A stretch of 64,000 nucleotides of DNA from positions 41,208-105,207 of the forward strand of contig JANLZB010000038.1 in the NCBI GenBank assembly GCA_031366005.1, written 5' to 3'. This stretch comes from Bacteroidota bacterium (GTDB lineage: Bacteria; Bacteroidota; Bacteroidia; AKYH767-A; OLB10). Under the pieces are notes generated by a model. It was not told the DNA's origin, did no database searches, and worked only from the letters and a program-made list of their open reading frames with translations. Of this stretch, positions 2,213-55,561 are shown in pieces. Position 1 is the first letter of the stretch, and each line of letters starts with the position of its first letter. The position numbers were made by a program, and so were the translations under genes.

Positions 2213-3547
2213 TTAAAACCATAGTTGTGTAATTAAAAAATAAATGTCATAAATACTTAATGAGACAATGAGGCAAATAATAAGTAATGCTGTATTGCAG
2301 ATAAGTTTTGATTTCAGCATAATAAACCCTTGCATAAAAAATTTTATAAATGAGGGCAATGCAGGAAAAATAAAAATGGATTTCATTATGCTGAAATCGC
2401 GGTAACTGTATGAATATTTTATCATGAACAATAAAAAACCTGCTGCAAAAACAAGGTGAATCCAGTCATATTGAGCAGTAATTTTCTCTTTAAAGAAATC
2501 TCTTATAGTTTTCAGCATGCCTGCAATAAAAAGTATTAAGGGCACAATTCCTAAAACAATTAACCACCGGCCGGCATTTAATAAATTTGGATCCATACTT
2601 TTCCAGCTATCGGGGTGCTGATCAAAATGCATGAACATGGTTCTTCCATATAACTGTGACCATAATGAAGTGCGATGCAACTGATAATTATCAATGGTGC
2701 TCACAATAAATGGTTCCCTGATCATATCGAAATAGCGAAACGTGAAGTATCCATCAACAACAGAAGTAATTCCTGGTCTTCCTGCATAAGTGTGATTGAA
2801 AAATGGTGGTGGAGGATCTTTGCGCAATACCAGCACAAAAGGAGTTCCGTATTTAATATAGTTATGAATGTAACCGGCACCAACAGGTATGATTGCAATA
2901 AAACTTATTACCAGTATTGTTAAAATTTTTATGTAAAGTTTTCTTTCTTCAAAGTGAGAAGCCAATAGTTTTATTGAAAAAATTATAGCGAGTGAAGCAA
3001 TCAAAATAAGCCCCGATCCTTTAATGAGACAGGCAATTATCACAAATACACACAACAAAATTCCCAGCCGAAATTTCTTCTCACTGAAAAACCTGTCTGC
3101 AAAATAAATGGTGAGAATGCCTGCTAATATTTCAGGAGTATCATTGGTAGCTTGAATATTAATTCCCGTAAGGCATGGATTAAAAGCAAGAAATGCAAAG
3201 GCTGCAATTTTAATTTTTTCTGAAAACGGTTGCCTCGCAATAAATTTCCATAGATAAAAAAGTATAAAAAAACTCAAAACAAAATTGAACATTTGCATAC
3301 AGAGAATGCTGTCCATCCGGTTATCAATACCCAGCATCTGAATAATTCCTGCATTGATGATATAATAAAGTTTTGGCTGAAAGCACTCCCAGCAATTATC
3401 CTTATCCGGCAGCGCATTGTGATTAATAATCCACTCAACCACTTCTACATGAGGGTCGTTTGCTTCATAATTAAGGAGAGATAAAATAAAACGCAGGCTG
3501 AGGGAAAGGATAAAAATGGAAAGGATTAATATTCTATTTCGCGACAT
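2213..3547 (-). CDS. polytopic integral membrane protein, possibly a GT-C-fold (ArnT/PMT-like) glycosyltransferase
   Basis: 444 aa with more than 10 predicted transmembrane segments and a loop carrying acidic residues after TM1. The family assignment is tentative. Confidence 0.3.
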   Translation of the reverse strand: MSRNRILILSIFILSLSLRFILSLLNYEANDPHVEVVEWIINHNALPDKDNCWECFQPKLYYIINAGIIQMLGIDNRMDSILCMQMFNFVLSFFILFYLWKFIARQPFSEKIKIAAFAFLAFNPCLTGINIQATNDTPEILAGILTIYFADRFFSEKKFRLGILLCVFVIIACLIKGSGLILIASLAIIFSIKLLASHFEERKLYIKILTILVISFIAIIPVGAGYIHNYIKYGTPFVLVLRKDPPPPFFNHTYAGRPGITSVVDGYFTFRYFDMIREPFIVSTIDNYQLHRTSLWSQLYGRTMFMHFDQHPDSWKSMDPNLLNAGRWLIVLGIVPLILFIAGMLKTIRDFFKEKITAQYDWIHLVFAAGFLLFMIKYSYSYRDFSIMKSIFIFPALPSFIKFFMQGFIMLKSKLICNTALLIICLIVSLSIYDIYFLITQLWF

Positions 3548-20046: not shown

Positions 20047-20239
20047 AGAGCAAAGATAGTTTGGCTAATGCAGAATTCGGAGCGTGATTAATTTCTTAAA
20101 TAATTATGCTTTGGCCCGCGCTCACCCTTAATTCCCTAAAGGGATACCACACGCGACAATTCCCCTTTAGGGGTTAGGGGTTTTTGAAGATGAAACACAT
20201 TGGATTTAAAATTTAAACAGGCTCTAAGAATGTTGAATC

Positions 20240-21640
20240 CTAAATCACCGCTTCCACTTTCTCATTCAGCCATTTCAAATCAGCGACATTTTTTTCTGCA
20301 TCAATTTCCTGTTTTAGTTTTTGAAGTTTGGTATTGCTAATCCCTGCCCGCACCAATCGCGTTAAAAATTTAACCAGGTTGCGGTTGATTGTTCGCTGAT
20401 ATTCTGAAATGCTTCTGTTGCGTAAAAGAAATAAACGAAACGCTGATGCGTGATAAAAAAAAGTTTCCACCTCATCCAATTCATAAAATGCTTTTAATAA
20501 AACCACTCGTGCATCCAGTTGATAAAACACATCTGTGAAAACAACATCCTGCAACTGGCGGATTGATTTTTTAAAATCTGCATTCATAAAATACCAGTAA
20601 GCAAGATTATATGCTAATGCATTTTTACGTTCGGCAGGCAATAAGTAATTGATGTATTTGTGAATAAAAATACGGCACCATTCTTTTTCATTTAAACGCA
20701 AGGCAATGCTTACGATGTTCTTATACTCCCATTGCGAAAGATAATCTGCATTCATCAGCCGTTTGTCAGCAAGCATCGTTTTATAAATTTCAAAAAGTGT
20801 TTTGATGTATGCAGTGTTTCCCTGGTTAATTTTTTTAACACAATAATTTTTTACATACTGATACATGCCATTCAATTCTGCAACAGGAAAAAGATGTCCG
20901 TGTTTTTTCAACAGCTCACGCAAACGGTCAAAGTTTTTTTCCTTGTCAGCATCAGTGAGCGTTAAGAGTATGTGATAATAAATCTGAATAACAGGAATTT
21001 TAGCAAACGGTTCTTTAACGGCCAGTTTTTTGATTTCATCAAACAAGTGCAAATTAAAATCACCTGAAAGAATATTTTTAAGATTGATTACCTCGCAAAA
21101 CAATTGGAGCTTACGCGATAAATAAAATGTTTCTAAATTTTGTAATACATCCTGATAATCCAGTTTCTTTTTTCGTGATTGCTTGCTTCCTGTATAATTG
21201 AGATGCTGATCTGCCGCAACGAAACGGTGATAATAAAACTTGGAATTCTGAATCTCGTCCTGTTGTTTTATTAAGTGATAACGATACTGGTATGATTTCT
21301 CACAATCACGCTTGGCAAGTTCATTTGCGCAAATTGTATTTTGCAATAAATCATCTTTATCAAAACCTCTGAGTGAAATAAAATATTCAAGATGCTTGGT
21401 GAGATCAGTGAGCAGGTAACGCATTTGCTGATCGTTAAATCTAACAATACCAAATATTTTTTTATGCAAGTCCTTGCGTGAAAAACTTTTGTTTTTATTC
21501 AGCATTACTCTCACAGCAATAAAACAATCATCCAGCTTTTTGTTTTCTGTAAAGTAGGGTGAATGGAGATAAGATTTAAATGCTTTTACTTCATGCAGGT
21601 TGAGTGAACGAATAAGTTCTGTAAGCTTTGAGTTTTGCAT
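20240..21640 (-). CDS. hypothetical helical (regulator-like) protein; paralog of 50681..52159
   Basis: 466 aa, all-helical. The N-terminal segment LTELIRSLNLHEVKAFKSYL aligns with LQQLITGMNKEQIRFFKLF of the second copy. It lies divergent from a T9SS cargo gene. Confidence 0.4.
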   Translation of the reverse strand: MQNSKLTELIRSLNLHEVKAFKSYLHSPYFTENKKLDDCFIAVRVMLNKNKSFSRKDLHKKIFGIVRFNDQQMRYLLTDLTKHLEYFISLRGFDKDDLLQNTICANELAKRDCEKSYQYRYHLIKQQDEIQNSKFYYHRFVAADQHLNYTGSKQSRKKKLDYQDVLQNLETFYLSRKLQLFCEVINLKNILSGDFNLHLFDEIKKLAVKEPFAKIPVIQIYYHILLTLTDADKEKNFDRLRELLKKHGHLFPVAELNGMYQYVKNYCVKKINQGNTAYIKTLFEIYKTMLADKRLMNADYLSQWEYKNIVSIALRLNEKEWCRIFIHKYINYLLPAERKNALAYNLAYWYFMNADFKKSIRQLQDVVFTDVFYQLDARVVLLKAFYELDEVETFFYHASAFRLFLLRNRSISEYQRTINRNLVKFLTRLVRAGISNTKLQKLKQEIDAEKNVADLKWLNEKVEAVI

Positions 21641-21659
21641 TGAGAAGACCTTCCTGTAT

Positions 21660-21801
21660 TGTCATCCTGAAAGGAACTTGTGTAATAGTATTATAAAGGT
21701 TGACTTAGTGGGGAGTTGATTTAACAGAGGTGCGTTGAACAAACTTGCTTCGTATTCAAACTTTGGTGCAACTATTACACAAGTTCCTTTCAGGATGACA
21801 G
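21660..21801. repeat. perfect 30-bp inverted repeat (TGTCATCCTGAAAGGAACTTGTGTAATAGT) flanking an 82-bp spacer; MITE-like or operator palindrome
   Basis: Left arm 21660-21689. The exact reverse complement is at 21772-21801. Read directly from the sequence. Confidence 0.8.
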
Positions 21802-22074
21802 TTATTTCGTGTAAAAATACTTTATCCCGACAAATAACCATATCATTTCAAAAATATGTTTGCTTTGCCTGTAAACTGTAAACCGAAAAACGTAAACTAT
21901 ACTTTGACAAATCAAAAAAACTGTACTTTTTTACAACCTGTTCCCCGAGTATGTTTGTATCGTGAAAAACTATCTGGTAGAAACACTACCTTTAAACTTC
22001 AGCTTATGAAAACAATATTTACCTCCTGTAAGACGCAAAGTATTTTCTCCAAAACAATACATTGCTTCAAAATC

Positions 22075-25000
22075 ATGCGCATAAAAAAACATGTTTCTCT
22101 TTTTTCTATTTTGATAATAATTTCATTTCAGTCAAAAAGCATCAATGTTCAGATATCCAAAGTGGATGATGCATGTGCTGAAGGCATCGGATCTATTGGT
22201 GCTTTTGCTTCTGGAGGAACACTTCCTTACACTTTTGTCTGGTCGAATGGAACAACTGATATTTCAAATGATGCGGAAGATACCATTCATAATCTTTTTG
22301 CGGGGGTATATTCTTTAACCGTGTATGACGCGGCAGGGGACAGTGCGGTTGTCAGCGCTACTTTAACAAATTATCCTAACCTTGATCGCAACGGTTTACT
22401 AGGAGCAATGAATATGATGACTAATAGTGGTCCTCCATTTCCGGGAAATCCCGGTTTTGCATGTCCGAATACTTATGATGGAATTATGTATGGTTTTTTA
22501 AATATAGTAGGTGGAATCCCTCCTTTTTCAGTGACTTCTTTCAGTACTAATAATTTTAATCCGTATGCAGATGCATATATAGGTATAGGTACAATCGGCT
22601 ATTATTTTGCGGTTGATAGCCTGATGACAGGCGACCAGTTTTTTATAACAATAGCTGATAATGCAGGCTGCACCGGAAACTTCAGCGATATGGAATTTGG
22701 TCCTGATTATTTCAGCACCAATATTATTTCTACAACGCCAGCAACTAACGGACAAAGCAACGGGAGCTTGACTATTGACCATCACTCCGGACCTTTTACT
22801 TTAAATATTATTCTTAATGACAGTCTTGGTTCTGTTGGTTCATTCAACGGAGTATCAGGATTGATGAACCTGAGCAACACGCTGCATCCGGGAACTTATA
22901 CCATTTACATGGAATATAATAATACAAGGAATGTGTGTGATACTACATTGACTGTTACTGTTGGAAATACAATTTCCAATGCAGGATATTACTGGGTTGG
23001 AGGCACAGGCAACTGGAGCGATTATGCAAACCATTGGGCTACTACAAGTGGAGGTACAACATTTCAAACAGCTCCACCAGGACCCAATGGTGATGTTTAT
23101 TTTGATGCGAATTCGTTTCCAACTGCGAATGATACTGTTCATGTAGATGTAACAACTGCCTATTGTAATAATTTTGATTGGACAGGTGCAAATAACAGTC
23201 CTGATATTTATGGAAGCGGCACTACCGTTAATATCTATGGCTCATTTATTTTATGTCCAACAATGACCTGCGATTTGCCCAATATCAATTTTATTTCATC
23301 ACAAACCAATAACATCATTCGCACTTATGGTAATCTGTCACTATTAGGTACGAACTTCACATTTAATAATCCCACCGGTGAATGGGAATTAGCTGACAAC
23401 CTCACTTTGCCTGTAAATGGAGGTGTGGGCAATCTCGCTGTTGTTAGCGGAACTTTTAAATCAAATAATTTTAATGTAACCTGTTATAGGATTACGGCTG
23501 GCAGCGCGACTGGATTGTTTGGAACTTCCACAATCGAATGTTCTGAATTTCACATTCTGTTTGGCGCCTCTCTTGACCTCGATTCAACAATTATTCAAGG
23601 AGTTGGTACACTAACTTCAAATCAAAATGGTATCGCATTCAATATTGTTAATGCTGTAGATATTTATGTTGATTCTTGTACGGTTAATAAAATCGTGTGC
23701 ACAGGTTTCAATGGTTTAAGCAATTCTGTTAAAGAAATAACCACCTTTTATATAAGCAATCAAGCCACTGGTAATGCAATAGCCCCTAATCATTTTCAAA
23801 AAGCAATATTTCCTTTTAATGGACGAATTGACTCTAACACTTCTTATTTTGATACAGTATTCGTAGATCAATCTTCGAGTACCTTTCAACTTCAAGGTAA
23901 CAGCAGCGATACAGTTTTTGTAAACAATCAATTCATCATAAACAAACCATCCGGACAATCAAATTTTACAAGCAATGGTCCTGTTCTATCCGTTGCATCA
24001 GGAACAGTTTGTCTTCACAATGTAGCCCTGCAAAATGTTGCTGCTGTCGGTGGCGCACAATTTTATGCAGGTCAGGGATGTACTGATGCAGGAGGCAACA
24101 CTGGTTGGACATTTGCTCCATGTTCAGTAGTAACAGATGTGTGGCCCGGTGATGCAAATTATGATTTAACAGTAAACAATTTGGATGTGCTAAACATCGG
24201 CATGGCTTATGGAGATACAGGTGCTGTTCGTACTGGTGCATCAAACAATTATGTTGCACAACCTGCAGTTGACTGGAGTGGATTTTTTCAAACAGCAGTA
24301 AATAAAAAACATGCTGACTGTAATGGTGATGGAATAGTTGACAACAATGACACGGCTGCAATTGCTTTGAACTATGGACAAAATCATCCTGCACGTTTTT
24401 CAAATCCCGGAAATCAACTGTTACCATCTCCAGATTTATATCTTGAAATAAATCCTGACTCCGCAAGCTTAAGCGATACTGTTAATGTGGATGTTTTTCT
24501 TGGAACAAACACCACACCTGTTGACAGTATTTATGGAATTGCCTTCACCATCAATTTTGATACTGCTTATGTGGATACCACTTATATGCCTTTTGATTAC
24601 ACTGGTAACTGGATGGGAGTTTCAGGTGTTGATTTATTAACGTTTCAGAAAACACGTTTCTTAGAGGGTGCAGTTGACATGGCAATGGTTCGCACTGATC
24701 ATCAGAATATCGGAGGCTTTGGATTTTTAGAACGCATAGGAATTGTGGTGGTGGATAATATCGGTGCACGAATTACAACTCCTTTCACGCTTTCCAATGT
24801 TCATGCAATCACTTACTCGGAATATGTGCTTGCTATAAATACTTTGAATGATTCTCTTTCACTTGATACCATCTCATCTGTTGGAATTAATGAAGTTGGA
24901 AATCTTGAAAACATGATTTCTGTTTATCCGAATCCTGTAAAGGAAAAATTACATATTCACTCAGGTAGAATTAATATGAATGGTGTTGAAATTTATAACT

Positions 25001-25149
25001 GCATGGGTGAGATGGTTGTTAATGAAAAAATAAATTCAAATTTTGTTAGTTTAAATGTTACAAATTTGCAACAGGGAATTTATTTGATTCGTTGTTATAC
25101 TGATAAAGGAGTTTTCAATAAACGAATGGTAATTGCAGTCAGGAAGTAA
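22075..25149 (+). CDS. large secreted protein with a dockerin-like calcium-binding repeat pair and a C-terminal T9SS (Por) sorting domain
   Basis: The start was taken at the internal MRIKKHVSLFSILIIISFQS signal. Two dockerin-type loops are GDANYDLTVNNLD and DCNGDGIVDNND. The C-terminus (VYPNPVKEKLHIHSG...GIYLIRCYTDKGVFNKRMVIAV) matches the T9SS CTD. Confidence 0.75.
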   Translation: MRIKKHVSLFSILIIISFQSKSINVQISKVDDACAEGIGSIGAFASGGTLPYTFVWSNGTTDISNDAEDTIHNLFAGVYSLTVYDAAGDSAVVSATLTNYPNLDRNGLLGAMNMMTNSGPPFPGNPGFACPNTYDGIMYGFLNIVGGIPPFSVTSFSTNNFNPYADAYIGIGTIGYYFAVDSLMTGDQFFITIADNAGCTGNFSDMEFGPDYFSTNIISTTPATNGQSNGSLTIDHHSGPFTLNIILNDSLGSVGSFNGVSGLMNLSNTLHPGTYTIYMEYNNTRNVCDTTLTVTVGNTISNAGYYWVGGTGNWSDYANHWATTSGGTTFQTAPPGPNGDVYFDANSFPTANDTVHVDVTTAYCNNFDWTGANNSPDIYGSGTTVNIYGSFILCPTMTCDLPNINFISSQTNNIIRTYGNLSLLGTNFTFNNPTGEWELADNLTLPVNGGVGNLAVVSGTFKSNNFNVTCYRITAGSATGLFGTSTIECSEFHILFGASLDLDSTIIQGVGTLTSNQNGIAFNIVNAVDIYVDSCTVNKIVCTGFNGLSNSVKEITTFYISNQATGNAIAPNHFQKAIFPFNGRIDSNTSYFDTVFVDQSSSTFQLQGNSSDTVFVNNQFIINKPSGQSNFTSNGPVLSVASGTVCLHNVALQNVAAVGGAQFYAGQGCTDAGGNTGWTFAPCSVVTDVWPGDANYDLTVNNLDVLNIGMAYGDTGAVRTGASNNYVAQPAVDWSGFFQTAVNKKHADCNGDGIVDNNDTAAIALNYGQNHPARFSNPGNQLLPSPDLYLEINPDSASLSDTVNVDVFLGTNTTPVDSIYGIAFTINFDTAYVDTTYMPFDYTGNWMGVSGVDLLTFQKTRFLEGAVDMAMVRTDHQNIGGFGFLERIGIVVVDNIGARITTPFTLSNVHAITYSEYVLAINTLNDSLSLDTISSVGINEVGNLENMISVYPNPVKEKLHIHSGRINMNGVEIYNCMGEMVVNEKINSNFVSLNVTNLQQGIYLIRCYTDKGVFNKRMVIAVRK

Positions 25150-38544: not shown

Positions 38545-41500
38545 TTACTCCACCTCCACCACCAAATCATCCGCCTCCACTAAAGTCCCTTCACTCAACA
38601 CTAAATTTTTTATTTTAAAATCATTGGACGCAGTGATGGTTGTTTCCATCTTCATTGCTTCGATGGTAAACAATGGAGTGTTGCGTTTTACTTGTTGACC
38701 AACTTTCACAAAAATTTTACTTAGCAAACCTTGCAATGGTGTTCCGATTTGTTTTTCGTTACTTGCTTTTGCATGTGAGATTTTTTTAACGTTTGCTTTT
38801 TTGTCTATTACATCCACGCTGCGTGTTTGTCCGTTCAAACGGAAGTAAACAGTGCGATGTCCGTTTTCATCCACATCACCAACATAAAGCAAACGAATGA
38901 TGATTGTTTTTCCTTTTGCAATCTCAACTAAAATTTCTTCGTTGTTTTTCATGCCGTAAAAAAATGCAGGGGTGGGCAATGAACTCACATCACCATATTT
39001 TTTTACGAAAGCATAATACTCTTCAAAAACTTTTGGATAAAATTTCCATGATAAAAAAGCTAAAAATGTGCATTGTGAATCAAATTTATTTTGGAATGCT
39101 GCAAACTCTTTTTCAAAATCAACAGGTTGTAAATGTGCGTTGGGTAAATCAGTGTAGGGCTTTTCATCTTTTAAAATGATGCGTTGCAATTCAGCCGGAA
39201 ATCCTCCGTGCGGTTGTCCTAAATCTCCTTTGAAAAAACTTTTTACTGATTCAGGAAAACTAATGTTATCTCCTTTGGTAAAAATATCTTCCTTGCTCAA
39301 ATTATTACTCACCATGTACAAAGCCATATCACCCACCACTTTTGAACTCGGTGTAACTTTCACCACATCACCAAACAATTCGTTCACATCAGCGTAAGTT
39401 TTTTTTATCTCCACCATTTTATCTCCCAACCCAAGTGAAGTCGCTTGTGGTTTGAGATTTGAATATTGTCCTCCAGGAATTTCGTGTTGATAAACATCAG
39501 CAGTACCAGCCATCATTCCGGACTCAAAAGGATAATACCATTCGCGAACTGTTTCCCAATAATTGGAATGTTCGTTGAGCGTGTCAATATTAAAATCAAC
39601 TTCGTGAGGTGTGTTGCGCAATGCTTCCACCATCGAATTAAAATTTGGTTGCGATGTTAAGCCACTCATCGAAGCAAGAGCAACATCCACCACATCAACA
39701 CCTGCTTCAATTGCTTTTAAATAAGTTGCAGATTGAATGGAAGAAGTATCGTGCGTGTGCAAATGAATCGGAATATCAATTACTTTTTTTAATTCAGCGA
39801 TGAGCAATGAAGCGGAATAGGGTTTCAACAAACCAGCCATATCTTTTATGCAAAGAATATGTGCGCCCATATTCTCCAGTTCTTTTGCAAGGTCAAGGTA
39901 ATATTGAAGCGTGTATTTCTTTTTGCTCTTATCTAAAATATCTCCGGTGTAACTAATGCATGCTTCTGCAATTCCTCCTGTTGAATTTCGCACTGCATCA
40001 ATACTCACCTTCATGCTCTTAGTCCAGTTGAGCGAATCAAAAATGCGAAACACATCCACACCATTCTTCCAACTCTCTTCAATAAATTTTTCAACGAGAT
40101 TATTTGGATACGCTGCATAACCAATTGCATTGTTACCACGAATCAACATCTGCAATAAAATATTTGGAATGGCTTCGCGCAATTGTTGCAAACGTTTCCA
40201 CGGACTCTCATGTAAAAAACGCAACGCAACATCAAACGTTGCTCCGCCCCAAACTTCCATACTGAATGTTTGCGGATGTTGCAATGCAAACGAATGTGCA
40301 ACACGCATTAAGTCAACCGTACGAACGCGGGTTGCCAATAAACTTTGGTGTGCATCACGAAAAGTGCAATCAGTAAACTGGACTTGCTTTTGTTCTTTCA
40401 ACCATTTTGCAAATTTTTCAGGACCGAGTTCAGTGAGTTTTTGTTTGGTCCCTGATTGGAGAGATTGCTTCGTGCCTCGCAATGACGAATGGTTTGGAAT
40501 TCGTGGTTGACTAAAAATTTTTGATGAATCAATTTTAGTTACATCAGGATTTCCGTTTACTAAAACATCAGCGAGATAGTTCAACACTTTCGTTCCACTG
40601 TCTTGTTTTATTTTGAAATGAAACAGTTCAGGATATTGCTCAATAAATTTTACGGTTGCTCCACCTTCACGGAAAACAGGATGCGTTATTACATTTTCTA
40701 AAAAAGGAATATTTGTTTTTACTCCACGAATACGAAACTCTGTCAGCGTGCGATACATGCGTTTACTTGCTCCACTCAACGTGCGGCCTTGTGCAGTAAC
40801 TTTTGCCAACATCGAATCAAAAAACGGAGACACCTTTACTCCTTGATAACTACTTCCTTCATCAATACGAATTCCATAACCTCCTGCATTTCGATAGGCA
40901 ATGAGTGTTCCGTAATCAGGTTTGAAATTATTGGAAGGGTCTTCCGTTGTGATGCGACATTGAATAGCAACACCACGACATTGCACTGCATCCTGATTTT
41001 TAATTTCAATTTTTGGAGAATCCAAACGCTCACCATCCGCAATTAAAATTTGATTGCGGACAATATCAATTCCTGTGATTTGTTCTGTTACCGTATGTTC
41101 AACTTGTATGCGCGGATTTACTTCAATGAAAAAAATATTTTCTTTTTCGTCCGTTAAAAATTCAACTGTGCCTGCATTGTTATAACCCACCTGCTTTGCA
41201 ATTCGCAAAGCGTAATCATACAACCTGTCACGAGTAGTTTGTTTCAGCCACGGAGCGGGAGCAATCTCTACCACCTTTTGAAATCTTCGTTGCACCGAGC
41301 AATCACGCTCAAACAAGTGAACAATGTTTCCGTGTTGGTCGCCAAGAATTTGTACTTCGATGTGTTTTGGATTATCAACAAATTTCTCAATGAAAATAGT
41401 ATCGTCACCAAAAGCATTTCCTGCTTCGCGTTTTGCTTCGTTAAATTCTTTTTCTAATTCTTCAATTTTTCTAATCACACGCATACCACGACCACCACCA

Positions 41501-41994
41501 CCTGCACTTGCTTTAAAAATTATGGGTAAACCAATTCGCTTTGCTTCTTCAATGGCAACAGTTGCATCAGTCAATTTTATTTTATTGTCTTCAATAACAG
41601 GAACACCGCAATTACGAGCAACAATTTTACTTGCTACTTTATCTCCGAGTTGCTGCATCACTTCAGGCGAAGGACCAACGAAAATAATTCCTTCTTCACG
41701 GCAACGTGTTGCAAAATTTACATTCTCCGAAAGGAATCCATAGCCGGGATGAATGGCGTTCACATCGTTCTCTTTTGCAACCGCAATTATTTCTTCAATG
41801 TCAAGATACGGTTTCAGCGGCTCATTGTCTTTACCGATTTGATACGCTTCATCAGCTTTATAGCGATGCAATGAATAACGGTCTTCATAAGTATAAATGG
41901 CAACGGTGCGTATCTGCAATTCCGATGCAGCACGTAATGCACGAATGGCAATTTCGCCACGATTGGCTACTAATAATTTATTGATTTTTTGCAT
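38545..41994 (-). CDS. pyc: pyruvate carboxylase (single-chain biotin carboxylase + carboxyltransferase + biotinyl domain)
   Basis: 1149 aa. The N-terminus is a biotin carboxylase (MQKINKLLVANRGEIAIRALRA...). The central region is an HMGL-like/PYC carboxyltransferase. The C-terminal biotinyl motif is EAMKME. Confidence 0.9.
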   Translation of the reverse strand: MQKINKLLVANRGEIAIRALRAASELQIRTVAIYTYEDRYSLHRYKADEAYQIGKDNEPLKPYLDIEEIIAVAKENDVNAIHPGYGFLSENVNFATRCREEGIIFVGPSPEVMQQLGDKVASKIVARNCGVPVIEDNKIKLTDATVAIEEAKRIGLPIIFKASAGGGGRGMRVIRKIEELEKEFNEAKREAGNAFGDDTIFIEKFVDNPKHIEVQILGDQHGNIVHLFERDCSVQRRFQKVVEIAPAPWLKQTTRDRLYDYALRIAKQVGYNNAGTVEFLTDEKENIFFIEVNPRIQVEHTVTEQITGIDIVRNQILIADGERLDSPKIEIKNQDAVQCRGVAIQCRITTEDPSNNFKPDYGTLIAYRNAGGYGIRIDEGSSYQGVKVSPFFDSMLAKVTAQGRTLSGASKRMYRTLTEFRIRGVKTNIPFLENVITHPVFREGGATVKFIEQYPELFHFKIKQDSGTKVLNYLADVLVNGNPDVTKIDSSKIFSQPRIPNHSSLRGTKQSLQSGTKQKLTELGPEKFAKWLKEQKQVQFTDCTFRDAHQSLLATRVRTVDLMRVAHSFALQHPQTFSMEVWGGATFDVALRFLHESPWKRLQQLREAIPNILLQMLIRGNNAIGYAAYPNNLVEKFIEESWKNGVDVFRIFDSLNWTKSMKVSIDAVRNSTGGIAEACISYTGDILDKSKKKYTLQYYLDLAKELENMGAHILCIKDMAGLLKPYSASLLIAELKKVIDIPIHLHTHDTSSIQSATYLKAIEAGVDVVDVALASMSGLTSQPNFNSMVEALRNTPHEVDFNIDTLNEHSNYWETVREWYYPFESGMMAGTADVYQHEIPGGQYSNLKPQATSLGLGDKMVEIKKTYADVNELFGDVVKVTPSSKVVGDMALYMVSNNLSKEDIFTKGDNISFPESVKSFFKGDLGQPHGGFPAELQRIILKDEKPYTDLPNAHLQPVDFEKEFAAFQNKFDSQCTFLAFLSWKFYPKVFEEYYAFVKKYGDVSSLPTPAFFYGMKNNEEILVEIAKGKTIIIRLLYVGDVDENGHRTVYFRLNGQTRSVDVIDKKANVKKISHAKASNEKQIGTPLQGLLSKIFVKVGQQVKRNTPLFTIEAMKMETTITASNDFKIKNLVLSEGTLVEADDLVVEVE

Positions 41995-42070
41995 AGTTAA
42001 ATGTGATAATGAAAATAGCTAATAATTTTTACGAAGGATTTTGTGAATCGTTACAGTACTCAAAAGTAAC

Positions 42071-42140
42071 CGTCATGTTGAACTTGTTTCAGCATCTGTA
42101 CAAATAAATAGAGAGATGCTGAAACAAGTCCAGCATGACG
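42071..42140. repeat. hairpin repeat element, copy 1 (27-bp arms CGTCATGTTGAACTTGTTTCAGCATCT / AGATGCTGAAACAAGTCCAGCATGACG, 16-nt loop)
   Basis: Read directly. It lies in the divergent region between pyc and the 42234 gene. It is about 85-90% identical to copy 2 at 43483..43542, loop tail ATAGAG included. Confidence 0.8.
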
Positions 42141-42233: not shown

Positions 42234-43469
42234 ATGAAAAAAAATATTTTACTTTTAATCACAATCACTACTCTGGCAAACAACATAAATGCACAATGGC
42301 AGACTACCAATGGACCATCTCCGGGTGCAACAGTTACCACTATGGCTGTTAACAGCACCAATCTATTTGCAAATGTGTATGATGGTGTTCATGCCTATTC
42401 AAATACTGCATGGAGTTATCCTGCAAACAGTGGATTTTTAATGGGTAGCAATATCAATGCTTTATTTGTGAGTGATTACAATTTATTTGCAGCGTTTCAA
42501 TTGGATGGTGGTGTGTTTATTTCTCCTGACAGCGGAGCAAGTTGGTTGCCTGCTTACAATGGTTTGCCAACTGATTTAGTTGGTCAGTTATATGCAGTTC
42601 ATGCGTTAAATTCTTCGGACATCACCTATCCGCTTTTTGCAGGAACAGAAAAAGGTGTGTATAGCACAACTAATAATGGCAGCTCGTGGACACCAGCAGG
42701 ATTATTGACAAGTGATATTCGTTGTTTAGCAAATCATGGCAATGAAGTTTTTGCAGGTACTTACAATAGTGGAGTGTATTACTCAAATAATAATGGAACA
42801 AGTTGGACAGCTATCAACAACGGTTTAACGGATACAACCATTCTATCATTGCTGTATGCAGGAATTGATACGTTGTTTGCCGGAACTATTTACGGTGTTT
42901 TTAGAACCACTGATAACGGAGCAAACTGGACAAACATCAGCACCGGTTTACCCACAAGTTTTACAGCTGAAGTAGTTGCTTTAGTAAAATATGGAAACAC
43001 CATTATTGCAGGAAGCAGAAATGGTGGAGTGTTTATCAATACAATGAACGGAAATAGTTGGACAGTAAACAATGCAGGATTTACTGCAGGAGGAGTTTAT
43101 TCATTAGCAATTAAAGGCACAAACGTGTATGCAGGCATCGGACAAGGAGGAGTGTGGACACGAGGATTAAGTGAGCTCACTACAGTGAATGAATTAGCTG
43201 ATGAAAATAATCAGGTCACGATTTTTCCAAATCCTGTAAAGGATGTTTGCACAATTGTGCTCAACAACAATTTAACAATGCAACAATTTAGCAATGCAAC
43301 TTTAAATCTTAATGATATTACAGGGCGAACAGTGCTACAACAAACTTTTAATTCTGATGATAAAATTGATTTAAGTATTTTGACACAAGGAGTTTATTTG
43401 TTAGAGTTAAAAGATATCCCCACTCAATCGGGAGGGCGAAGTTTAAAAGGGAAAGTTGTGAAGCAATAA
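42234..43469 (+). CDS. secreted BNR/Ycf48-like repeat protein with a C-terminal T9SS sorting domain
   Basis: 411 aa with a signal peptide. Repeats are SPDSGASW, TTNNGSSWT, SNNNGTSWT, TTDNGANWT and NTMNGNSWT. The CTD reads IFPNPVKDVCTIVLNNN...GVYLLELKD. Confidence 0.7.
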   Translation: MKKNILLLITITTLANNINAQWQTTNGPSPGATVTTMAVNSTNLFANVYDGVHAYSNTAWSYPANSGFLMGSNINALFVSDYNLFAAFQLDGGVFISPDSGASWLPAYNGLPTDLVGQLYAVHALNSSDITYPLFAGTEKGVYSTTNNGSSWTPAGLLTSDIRCLANHGNEVFAGTYNSGVYYSNNNGTSWTAINNGLTDTTILSLLYAGIDTLFAGTIYGVFRTTDNGANWTNISTGLPTSFTAEVVALVKYGNTIIAGSRNGGVFINTMNGNSWTVNNAGFTAGGVYSLAIKGTNVYAGIGQGGVWTRGLSELTTVNELADENNQVTIFPNPVKDVCTIVLNNNLTMQQFSNATLNLNDITGRTVLQQTFNSDDKIDLSILTQGVYLLELKDIPTQSGGRSLKGKVVKQ

Positions 43470-43482
43470 GGAATAAGTAATA

Positions 43483-43542
43483 CTGAACTTGTTTCAGCAT
43501 CTATTGCAATAGAGAGATGCTGAAACAAGTTCAGCATGACGG
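43483..43542. repeat. hairpin repeat element, copy 2 (CTGAACTTGTTTCAGCATCT - ATTGCAATAGAG - AGATGCTGAAACAAGTTCAGCATGACGG)
   Basis: Read directly. It sits immediately downstream of the 42234..43469 gene in the same orientation as copy 1, so the two copies flank that gene. Confidence 0.8.
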
Positions 43543-53311: not shown

Positions 53312-55561
53312 ATGCGTTATCTCGTTACAGCTGCGCTTCCTTATGCAAATGGTCCTCTTCACATTGGTCATATTGCAGGATGCTATTTGCCGGCTGATAT
53401 TTATGTGCGTTACCTGCGACTGATCAATGAAGATGTAAAATTTATTTGTGGTTCAGATGAGCATGGTGTGCCGATCACAATCAAAGCGCGTAATGAAGGC
53501 GTAACTCCTCAACAGGTTGTAGATAAATATCACAGCATAATGAAAAATTCTTTTGCGGAGTTTGGAATTTCATTTGATATTTATTCGCGAACAACAAACA
53601 AAGTACATCACGAAACAGCGCAGGCATTTTTTAAAAAGCTGTATGATGATAAAGTTTTTACAGAAGAAATTACGGAGCAATATTATGATGAGGAAGTAAA
53701 ACAATTTTTGGCAGATCGCTATATTGAAGGTACTTGTCCTCGTTGTGGTTTTGCACGTGCTTATGGTGATCAGTGCGAGAACTGCGGTTCATCATTAAAC
53801 CCCACTGATTTAATAAATCCTGTTTCAAAGCTGAGTGGTAAAGCGCCTGTGTTACGCAAAACAAAGAATTGGTTTTTGCCTTTAAACAAGTTTGAAAAGG
53901 ATTTAAAAAAATGGATTGGCTCGCACCAGGAAGACTGGAAAGTAAATGTGTATGGTCAGTGTATGAGTTGGTTGAACACAGGATTGCAGCCGCGAGCAAT
54001 GACGCGTGATCTTGATTGGGGTGTAAAAGTTCCGTTGCCTGATACAGAAGGAAAAGTATTAGACGTTTGGTTCGATGCACCGATTGGTTATATCTCTGCA
54101 ACAAAGGAGCTTTTTGAAAAGGAGGCAGGAGGCAGGAAGCAGGAGGCAGGGGAAAATAAGTTGGCAATTGGCAGTGGGCAGTTGGCAAAAGAAAAAAAAG
54201 AAGAAGAAAATAAAACAAGTGAACAATTATCCGAGACGACTCCCCTCTCCTTTGGAGAGGGGCAAGGGGGAGAGGTCTGGGAGCAATATTGGAAACAACA
54301 ACCCAACCCAAAAGATAATCCAAAGCTCATTCATTTTATTGGAAAGGATAATATTGTTTTTCATTGTTTGATATTTCCTGCCATGTTGAATGCGCATGGT
54401 GATTATGTGTTGCCAACCAATGTTCCGGCTAATGAGTTTTTAAATCTGGAAGGAGATAAGATTTCCACTTCACGAAACTGGGCAGTGTGGCTGCACGAAT
54501 ATTTAATTGATTTCAAAGACAAGCAGGATGTGTTGCGTTATGTATTGTGTGCAACAGCACCCGAAACAAAAGATAATGATTTTACCTGGAGAGATTTTCA
54601 GGCGCGCAACAACAATGAGTTGGTAGCAGTGTTTGGAAATTTTGTTAACCGCACGTTAGTACTCACACAAAAATATTTTGAAGGGAAAGTTCCTCCACAT
54701 CACAAACTGACAGATGCTGATCAGGAATGTATTTCTGCAATACAGGCAGCAAAAAGAAACATCAGTGACAGCATTGAGAAATTCCGTTTCCGTGAAGCGT
54801 TGAATGAGCTGATGACATTAGCTCGTGTAGGAAATAAATATTTAGCCGACACGGAACCGTGGAAAGTTTATAAAACAGATCCGCAACGTGTGGAAACAAT
54901 ATTATATATCGCTTTAGAAATAACAGCGTATCTCGCTGCATTATGCGAACCGTTTCTGCCGCACACATCTGCAAGCTTATATACAATGCTCAATCTTGAA
55001 AAATTAAACTGGGCAAAAGATTTAAAAGGACAAATATTAAAACCCGGACATGTAATGGGCGAAGTAAAATTATTGTTTGAAAAAATAGAAGATGAAATGA
55101 TAGAGAAACAGGTGGATAAATTACATGCTTCGAAAGAAGTGAATGCAATTCAGGAGGCAGGAAGCAGGAAGCAGGAAGCAGTGGGAAACAAAGTGGACAA
55201 AATCACGAAAGACGATTCCCTCTCCTTGGGAGAGGGTAAGGTCTCTTACGATGATTTCAGCAAGATGGATTTGCGTGTTGCAACAATAATTGCTGCAGAA
55301 AAAGTTGAGAAGGCAGATAAATTATTAAAGCTTACGCTTGATACAGGCATTGACCAACGCACAGTGGTAAGTGGAATTGCATTGCATTATAAGCCGGAAG
55401 AAATTATAGGACAACGCGTGACATTGCTTGCAAATCTTGCACCGCGTAAAATCCGTGGCATTGAATCAAAAGGAATGATTTTGATGGCAGAGAATGAAAA
55501 AGGAGAATTGTGTTTCATTGCTCCTACAAAAGATTTTGCTAATGGGAGTGGTATCAGTTAA
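53312..55561 (+). CDS. metG: methionyl-tRNA synthetase with C-terminal tRNA-binding (EMAP-like) domain; carries two in-frame repeat-element insertions
   Basis: 749 aa. The HIGH motif is [11 protein letters not shown]. The zinc knuckle is CPRCG...CENCG. KMSKS-type and anticodon domains are present. The C-terminus reads ...[27 protein letters not shown]... Extra segments interrupt the conserved connective peptide and the linker: [13 protein letters not shown]...[11 protein letters not shown] and [13 protein letters not shown]...SLSLGEGK. Confidence 0.9.
54118..54280 (+). repeat. intragenic repeat element copy 1 inside metG (GGAGGCAGGAGGCAGGAAGCAGGAGGCAGG ... CCCCTCTCC-TTT-GGAGAGGGG CAAGGGGGAGAGGTC)
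   Basis: Read directly. It is in frame with metG and has the same 5' and 3' modules as copy 2. Confidence 0.75.
55152..55247 (+). repeat. intragenic repeat element copy 2 inside metG (CAGGAGGCAGGAAGCAGGAAGCAGGAAGCAG ... CCCTCTCC-TTG-GGAGAGGG TAAGGTCTC)
   Basis: Read directly. It is in frame, located in the linker before the C-terminal tRNA-binding domain. Confidence 0.75.

Follow-up and report, generated by a model that had tools for sequence, protein, structure and literature searches.

A gene-less inverted doublet in the 5' region of a divergent gene pair belongs to a hairpin repeat family that is dispersed in many Bacteroidota genomes and associated with Ssn-type nuclease genes

The 141-bp palindromic element between the divergent genes for a 466-aa protein and a T9SS cargo protein in the window, by which we mean the whole 64-kb stretch of Bacteroidota DNA that was analyzed, is a gene-less copy of a hairpin repeat of mobile type that occurs in many Bacteroidota genomes, and not a locus-specific control site. 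We consider it likely that the element consists of two inverted copies of a Bacteroidota version of the Ssn-related motif (SRM), the repeat partner of Ssn nucleases, in a MITE- or REPIN-like doublet that has no ORF. It was directly established that the element is a member of this repeat family, that the family is dispersed and extragenic, that ssn genes are nested between its arms, that these genes are homologous to that of SsnA, and that the element is absent from the orthologous sites. The element is best filed as a new member of the Ssn/SRM repeat systems, in a Bacteroidota form that escapes the published pattern.

The features of the locus are summarized in Table 1. The two arms of the element are paired at 30 of 30 positions across a spacer of 81 nt, and the pairing stops at both ends, where 21659 T is opposed to 21801 G on the outer side and 21690 A is opposed to 21770 A on the inner side. 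The initial annotation had correctly described a perfect 30-bp inverted repeat with its left arm at 21660-21689, but its right arm (21772-21801), its spacer of 82 bp and its unit of 142 bp were each off by one. Its statement that such a repeat is far beyond chance was confirmed, as none of 100 dinucleotide-preserving shuffles of the window (0/100) yielded an arm match with three or fewer mismatches. When folded as single-stranded DNA, the element reached -33 kcal/mol (z = -9.1), and the element region folded as RNA at -72 kcal/mol (z = -7.9). The whole 64-kb window contains only about four long hairpins and one copy of the arm family. Rfam gave no gathering-level matches in the window and six related loci, and in E-value mode the region and five ssn loci showed only spurious matches of miRNA models to long hairpins, with no COG2827-type or other curated motif. 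An integron attC site, an intrinsic terminator and a CRISPR repeat were each considered and rejected: the element has neither a GTTRRRY core nor an integrase, no T-run follows its stem and it lies between divergent genes, and the window contains no CRISPR array.

Table 1. Coordinates of the element, its neighboring genes, the candidate promoter boxes and the other doublets in the window
Feature	Position	Strand	Remarks
Complete element	21660..21800	.	141 bp; inverted doublet of two Ssn-related-motif-like units, GTCAT ends outward
Left arm	21660..21689	+	30 nt, TGTCATCCTGAAAGGAACTTGTGTAATAGT
Left-arm unit			t-GTC(21661-63)-A-TCCT(21665-68)-GAA(21669-71)-AGGA(21672-75)-aCTTG...
Spacer	21690..21770	.	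81 nt; no ORF, internal pairing only weak
Right arm	21771..21800	-	Left-arm unit on the minus strand, exact reverse complement
466-aa gene	20240..21640	-	All-alpha helical-repeat protein; start codon 19 nt from left arm
T9SS cargo gene	22075..25149	+	Por_Secre_tail domain, weak SprB repeat
Candidate -7 box for 466-aa gene	21849..21856	-	TATTTTTG, matches TAnnTTTG
Candidate -7 box for cargo gene	21950..21957	+	TATGTTTG; block conserved in all orthologs, outside the element
Second candidate -7 match for cargo gene	21855-21862	+	
SRM-like inverted doublet of a different family	42070..42140	.	CGTC-ATGYTGAA-CTTG-TTCAGCAT-CT; upstream of T9SS cargo gene 42234-43469
Second doublet of the 42070..42140 family	43477..43541	.	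Just downstream of 42234-43469; left arm degenerate

In a scan of one genome per species, the outer 20-mer of the arm, GTCATCCTGAAAGGAACTTG, was found at 61 loci in Cytophagales and other Bacteroidota. Most of these loci belong to Hymenobacteraceae, including Rufibacter, Pontibacter, Sabulibacter, Adhaeribacter and others, and the remaining ones belong to Microscillaceae, Sphingobacteriales, Chitinophagaceae and unclassified Bacteroidota MAGs; a single Rufibacter draft contained as many as 12 exact copies. Nearly all matches, read in register, form the outer end of a hairpin, GTCATCCTGAAAGGAACTTG...CAAGWTCYTTYCAGRATGAC. Of 67 arms, 45 had a partner arm no more than 300 nt away, and the resulting doublets have a median length of 88 nt (range 62-287 nt). 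Seven of the 67 arms (10%) fell within ORFs of at least 120 aa, compared with 75% of random positions in the same loci.

A 141-bp near-twin of the window's own sub-type was present in another Bacteroidota MAG (L043), in like orientation, at an unrelated locus between a LexA-like gene and rsmI. The two copies are identical at 58 of 60 arm positions and at 60 of 81 spacer positions, so that the arms are much better conserved than the interior; the spacer core AGTTGATTTAACAGAGGYRCGTTGAACAAACTT is common to both. In a metagenome scan, the sub-type 20-mer GAAAGGAACTTGTGTAATAG gave one chance match, which lacked GTCATCC, and the viral contigs gave no match. Only two copies of the exact sub-type were found across the genome, metagenome and viral collections, so that any recent mobility of this sub-type would be conjectural.

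To identify genes that accompany the repeats, ORFs within 1.2 kb of the 67 arms were clustered, and the sole recurrent family other than housekeeping genes was a GIY-YIG protein of about 96 aa; the other clusters were housekeeping orthologs. This nuclease family, of 96-98 aa, was also the only gene found between arms. In a Sabulibacter locus (L051), one arm (3055-3099), the ssn ORF (3100-3396) and the other arm (about 3397-3432) follow each other directly, and a second, frameshifted ssn copy with 39-nt perfectly complementary arms lies 1.8 kb away. The outer 20-mer of the window left arm is identical to the left arm of this ssn-bearing element. The ssn gene is likewise nested between arms in a Cytophagales MAG (L041), in Adhaeribacter (L070) and in Arcicella (L072/73). 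Nesting between inverted arms is not universal for ssn, as exemplified by L055, L071 and L074: direct arm copies are found on both sides of ssn in L074-79, and ssn lies between or beside separate doublets in L055, L071 and L081 (a Spirosoma plasmid), with the non-nested arms of all these loci positioned no more than 150 nt from ssn. In the case of a Rufibacter copy without an ORF (L008), both the 5' leader (...CTAGAAAAGCAGAAG) and the 3' trailer (CTACTACCGTTCGCC) of the L051 ssn element are retained, and this copy is therefore related to the ssn element as a MITE is to its parent element.

About 1,900 homologs of the GIY-YIG protein were detectable; a Hymenobacteraceae genome often encodes several of them, and many lie on very short contigs. 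The protein matches Pfam PF01541 (GIY-YIG) and nothing in NCBIfam, and a PDB sequence search returned only weak UPF0213 matches. The Sabulibacter protein aligned with SsnA of Neisseria gonorrhoeae over its full length, with 35% identity over 92 aa (E = 2e-15). The gonococcal ssnA reference, which encodes 94 aa and has the Neisseria repeat NTS on both sides, was taken from L080 (NZ_CP119140.1), which is among two 2.17-Mb N. gonorrhoeae chromosomes that are mislabeled as plasmids in PLSDB. The Bacteroidia MAG GCA_039931675.1 possesses both a 54% ortholog of the 466-aa gene (L082) and an ssn gene (L083). The latter is located inside a head-to-tail array (305-1230) of at least three doublets of 145-172 bp and two further arm starts, and the arms of these doublets, GTCATCCTG(A/C)AAGGAACTTCTGTG, are nearly those of the window. 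As seen in this array, doublets are able to accumulate in tandem beside the nuclease gene. No ssn homolog was found in the 64-kb window, and a cognate enzyme in this organism is therefore putative.

The Ssn family comprises single-domain GIY-YIG proteins of about 94 aa (cd10448) that cut only single-stranded DNA, beside an oriented hairpin repeat (Chenal et al., Nat Commun 2025, PMC11893778). Ssn and its hairpin repeats were described in 2025, mainly from Proteobacteria, and the main text does not mention Bacteroidota (PMC11893778). In the literature on COG2827, YhbQ and GIY-YIG in combination with MITE or Bacteroidetes, we found no account of the repeats described here. The Neisseria repeat, NTS (NTS/dRS3, CGTCATTCCCGCGMAVGCGGGAATCYRG), has the layout CGTC-ATTCCCGCG-MAV-CGCGGGAAT-C and was generalized as the SRM (PMC11893778). 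The cognate Ssn binds single-stranded DNA, cleaves just upstream of the repeat and is inactive on double-stranded DNA, RNA and the reverse strand, as assayed with only two enzymes, those of Neisseria and Wolbachia (PMC11893778). SRMs flank the majority of ssn genes. The arrangement 'NTS-ssnA-NTS' was likened by the authors to an insertion sequence, and transposition driven by Ssn was raised as a hypothesis only (PMC11893778).

Comparing the window arm with this design, a GTC(AT) tag lies directly 5' of a stem-loop (tGTC-A-TCCT-GAA-AGGA-a). The mini-stem covaries among partner arms, from which covariation could be read unconstrained by the search word: ATCCT/AGGAT in the consensus, and ATTCT/AGAAT, ATCTT/AAGAT and ACCCT/AGGG in others. 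This covariation supports a hairpin inside each arm that is independent of the long arm-to-arm pairing. The published SRM pattern, HGTCWYN(0-2)YYVSBRHN(0-5)WNVSBRGN(0-2)RNCYNB, had no match on either strand of the window and matched none of the Bacteroidota units; as a control, our implementation of the pattern found seven NTS in a gonococcal sequence of 1.47 kb. The window arm misses the pattern because its stem is too short.

Like SRM and NTS, the Bacteroidota unit consists of GTC and a stem that starts and finishes with AT, followed by C. For the family as a whole, the copies are mostly extragenic and multi-copy, with one copy in the 64 kb of the window. Arms are found on both sides of a single-domain GIY-YIG gene of about 95 aa, and the SRM trait of flanking Ssn-family genes is seen for the arm family at L051 (twice), L041, L070, L072/73, L074-79, L055, L071, L081 and L083. 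As with NTS, copies adjoin surface-protein genes, both here and in Neisseria. Unlike SRM and NTS, the Bacteroidota stem is only 4-5 bp long with a G(A/G)A triloop, the conservation runs about 15 nt 3' of the stem, the units are typically paired with their GTCAT ends outward into super-hairpins of 62-290 nt, and ssn can sit inside one doublet.

In the reading that we favor, each arm would be one unit, composed of GTC, a stem of 4-5 bp with a G(A/G)A loop and about 15 more conserved bases, and the two units would face each other, so that on either DNA strand the element begins at its 5' edge with a forward unit. Relatives of full length follow the order arm, ssn and arm, with ssn in place of the spacer, and the window copy would relate to the ssn-bearing element as a MITE or REPIN does to its autonomous partner. 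The organism's own Ssn may recognize the arms in single-stranded DNA and nick just 5' of GTCAT, and this activity may underlie the spread or turnover of the repeats. If it is part of the 5' UTR of the 466-aa gene, the element would fold in the transcript into a highly stable hairpin, 19 nt ahead of the start codon.

REPINs and BIMEs of Proteobacteria are inverted doublets of a short hairpin unit, which form extragenic hairpins of about 100 nt in many copies. Their enzyme, RAYT, is a single-strand-specific, IS200/IS605-like Y1 transposase whose gene is flanked by REPIN units, and the ORF-less REPIN doublets are the replicating or abundant form. The Bacteroidota repeats resemble this system in that they are extragenic, multi-copy inverted hairpin doublets, whose units flank the gene of a putative cognate single-strand-specific nuclease. 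They differ in that the enzyme is of the GIY-YIG type and not an HUH/Y1 transposase, and in that the conserved 5' tag is GTC(AT) and not GTAG. No Y1_Tnp (IS200-like) gene was seen near any arm copy examined by ORF clustering, and a Pfam scan of the window neighbors gave housekeeping genes only. The parallel between REPIN/RAYT and SRM/Ssn has also been drawn in the original description of Ssn repeats (PMC11893778).

The long perfect terminal inverted repeats, the small size, the TG...CA ends and the dispersed, extragenic distribution could also describe a classical MITE, that is, a deletion derivative of an insertion sequence that is mobilized in trans by a DDE transposase recognizing the 30-bp terminal repeats. 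We regard such an origin as very unlikely. No direct repeat is present at the flanks of the window copy, where ...CCTGTAT precedes the element and GTTATTTC... follows it, and no target-site duplication was evident across the 61 loci. The ORF clustering around the arms gave no transposase of a parent insertion sequence, the GIY-YIG gene being the only one between arms, and the 10 kb to the left and right of the window copy are free of transposase genes. Moreover, a covarying internal stem-loop would be expected of a hairpin signal that is read in single strands, not of a site for a double-strand transposase. The initial annotation had suggested a MITE-like insertion, for which it looked to dispersed copies with TA or target-site-duplication flanks. 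The element is indeed a dispersed repeat of mobile type, but the classical mechanism does not hold: target-site duplications, of TA or any other sequence, are not seen, and a GIY-YIG single-strand nuclease is the coding partner. Correia elements of Neisseria duplicate a TA target and lack a coding partner of the GIY-YIG type. While the window element resembles these MITEs in its length class (100-160 bp), its long terminal inverted repeats, its intergenic position near gene starts and a possible contribution of hairpins to mRNAs, it differs in the lack of a target duplication and in the presence of the GIY-YIG partner.

The orthologous intergenic regions were also compared. In close relatives, the T9SS cargo gene is followed by the divergent 466-aa gene, a dCMP deaminase gene and an S41 peptidase gene. 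The window element is absent from L064, L065, L068 and L069, whose proteins are 83-86% identical. Their intergenic regions align with that of the window from the cargo gene to ...ATTTGTCGGRATAAAGTATTTTTAC, and from there to the ATG they diverge completely. At the position of the window element, L064 contains a CGTCATTGCGAGGAACGAAGCAATCT doublet, and L065 and L068/69 contain CGCAGAG-type palindromes. In the more distant L082 (54% ortholog), a GTCATGCTGAGCGAAGTCGAAGC doublet is located about 55 nt upstream of the start.

This absence bears on the other proposal of the initial annotation, a long operator or cruciform in the control region that the two divergent genes share, which would be a locus-specific site bound by a regulator. 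In line with an operator, the element has perfect dyad symmetry and is placed between divergent genes, 19 nt away from the start codon of one of them. However, the orthologous sites lack the element although the promoter-like blocks on its flanks are conserved there, and this largely refutes an operator; in other genomes, its arms are found at dozens of unrelated loci, and the neighboring 466-aa protein shows no DNA-binding domain. An operator is thus extremely unlikely in our estimate. The 466-aa protein had been called regulator-like. It matched nothing in Pfam or NCBIfam, and its confident structural model (pLDDT 91) shows an all-alpha solenoid of TPR/PPR-like type, for which the fold search gave no specific match and which has no link to nucleic-acid hairpins; being a generic solenoid, it leaves the regulator-like label unsupported. 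The initial annotation had further tied any functional interpretation to the presence of the element either in orthologous intergenic regions or elsewhere: it is absent from the former, but a near-twin (L043) and dispersed copies of its arms do exist.

Although the window element itself is not conserved, a strong palindrome is present upstream of the 466-aa gene in all five of the orthologous regions with DNA (fold z -3.2 to -9.1); where the regions can be aligned, in four cases, it is found in the segment from the conserved block to the ATG. The regions compared were 21641-21850 in the window, 4880-5000 in L064, 3340-3460 in L065, 4880-5000 in L068 and 40-177 in L082. By sequence, the five palindromes fall into at least four families that are unrelated to each other, and they vary in size and in distance to the ATG. 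Their constant occurrence suggests either an insertion hot spot at which elements serially replace one another or selection for a hairpin of whatever sequence. No pair of an empty and a filled site with a clean boundary was found among the orthologous sites, because these hold other palindromes. Separately, a single unit of the family of the L064 doublet, CGTCATTGCGAGGCACGAAGCAATCTCT, occurs on the minus strand of the window at 40460-40486, inside the pyruvate carboxylase CDS (38545-41994), and may be a chance match or an in-gene copy.

Promoters were called only as matches to the Bacteroidota -7 consensus TAnnTTTG. The candidate box of the 466-aa gene falls in a block that is partly conserved among the orthologous regions, and no TAnnTTTG box was found inside the element, including its spacer. 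The ORF of the cargo gene is open from 21856, and its likely start is at 22075 (MRIKKHVSLFSILII, signal-peptide-like), in agreement with the initial annotation, which had given the same divergent pair with the same boundaries. If the minus-strand box of the 466-aa gene is used, the whole element would be transcribed as part of the 5' UTR, ending 19 nt before the start codon; such a 5' UTR location is probable.

With such a location, the element might have been exapted and kept as a 5' UTR hairpin for mRNA stability or translation control of the 466-aa gene. This would be compatible with the SRM-type doublet as a secondary role, and we consider it doubtful. It is favored by the strong palindrome in five of five orthologous upstream regions with DNA, which at about four long hairpins per 64 kb looks unlikely to have arisen by five independent chance occurrences, and by the TAnnTTTG box (21856-21849, minus strand), which would place the element in the transcript. 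The promoter call, however, is a consensus match only, the at least four unrelated palindrome families with their different sizes and ATG distances also fit a hot spot or serial replacement, and one ortholog of 64% identity has an intergenic region of only 213 bp.

An invertible promoter acting as a phase-variation switch between the divergent genes was also considered, since a surface-protein (T9SS cargo) gene lies alongside, as in Bacteroides invertons. In addition, the interior of one family member is apparently flipped between two Rufibacter species. At their orthologous nuoF-nuoG intergenic site (L008 1931-2018 and L018 4071-4150), the outer arms are co-oriented and the asymmetric interior, CTAGAAAAGC...GCTACTACCG, is reverse-complemented, which suggests an in-place inversion between the arms or independent insertions. 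Against an inverton in the window, neither a transposase nor a recombinase gene was found within about 10 kb on either side, nor any recombinase in 9-36 kb of the window, the spacer contains no TAnnTTTG box and is short with 81 nt, and the family is tied to ssn genes and not to recombinases. A 1.5-kb Logan contig ends inside the arm, but such an end is expected of a k=31 assembly at any 30-bp inverted repeat. An invertible promoter is thus, to our judgment, highly improbable. Downstream of the 466-aa gene, at 20120-20185, we noted small palindromes (ATTCCCTAAAGGGAT ... TTCCCCTTTAGGGGTTAGGGG) of a further type that is common in Bacteroidota, a segment that folds no better than its shuffles (z = -0.8) and where Logan contig L001 also ends.

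Two further doublets in the window, which share the form CGTC-ATGCTGAA-CTTG-TTCAGCAT-CTCT, bracket a T9SS cargo gene of 411 aa (Table 1). All three of the three doublets in the window adjoin T9SS cargo genes, an anecdotal observation with n = 3. Within that small number, their placement recalls the clustering of NTS around Neisseria surface-protein genes. Purine-rich short tandem repeats (AGGAGGCAGGAAGCAGG...) are also present at 54110-54200 and 55150-55200, inside or beside a coding region resembling an aminoacyl-tRNA synthetase.

Going beyond the SRM-type doublet that we favor, the arm-ssn-arm units of Bacteroidota could be autonomous single-stranded DNA transposons driven by a GIY-YIG nuclease of about 96 aa, with ORF-less doublets such as that of the window as their MITE/REPIN-like offspring, homing to pre-existing hairpins. 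We hold this to be unlikely. If such homing were true, it would explain why different palindromes occur upstream of the 466-aa gene in five related lineages, in the four alignable ones at one and the same spot. The transposon itself would be a mobile element of prokaryotes with a mechanism of a new class, and Ssn would gain its first biological role outside Neisseria.

Taken all together, Bacteroidota carry a large repeat family of SRM design that the published pattern misses, and these repeats are organized as inverted doublets that are able to enclose a nuclease gene. The ORF-less doublets land beside gene starts, here probably in a 5' UTR next to a T9SS surface-protein gene, and the comparison of relatives points to the upstream region of the 466-aa gene as a site of repeated replacement among palindromic elements. 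For annotation, the family accounts for one class of the long perfect palindromes, and of the assembly breaks, that are met in genomes of Bacteroidota, and it offers sequence-defined pairs of enzyme and site with which to ask whether Ssn moves its repeats.
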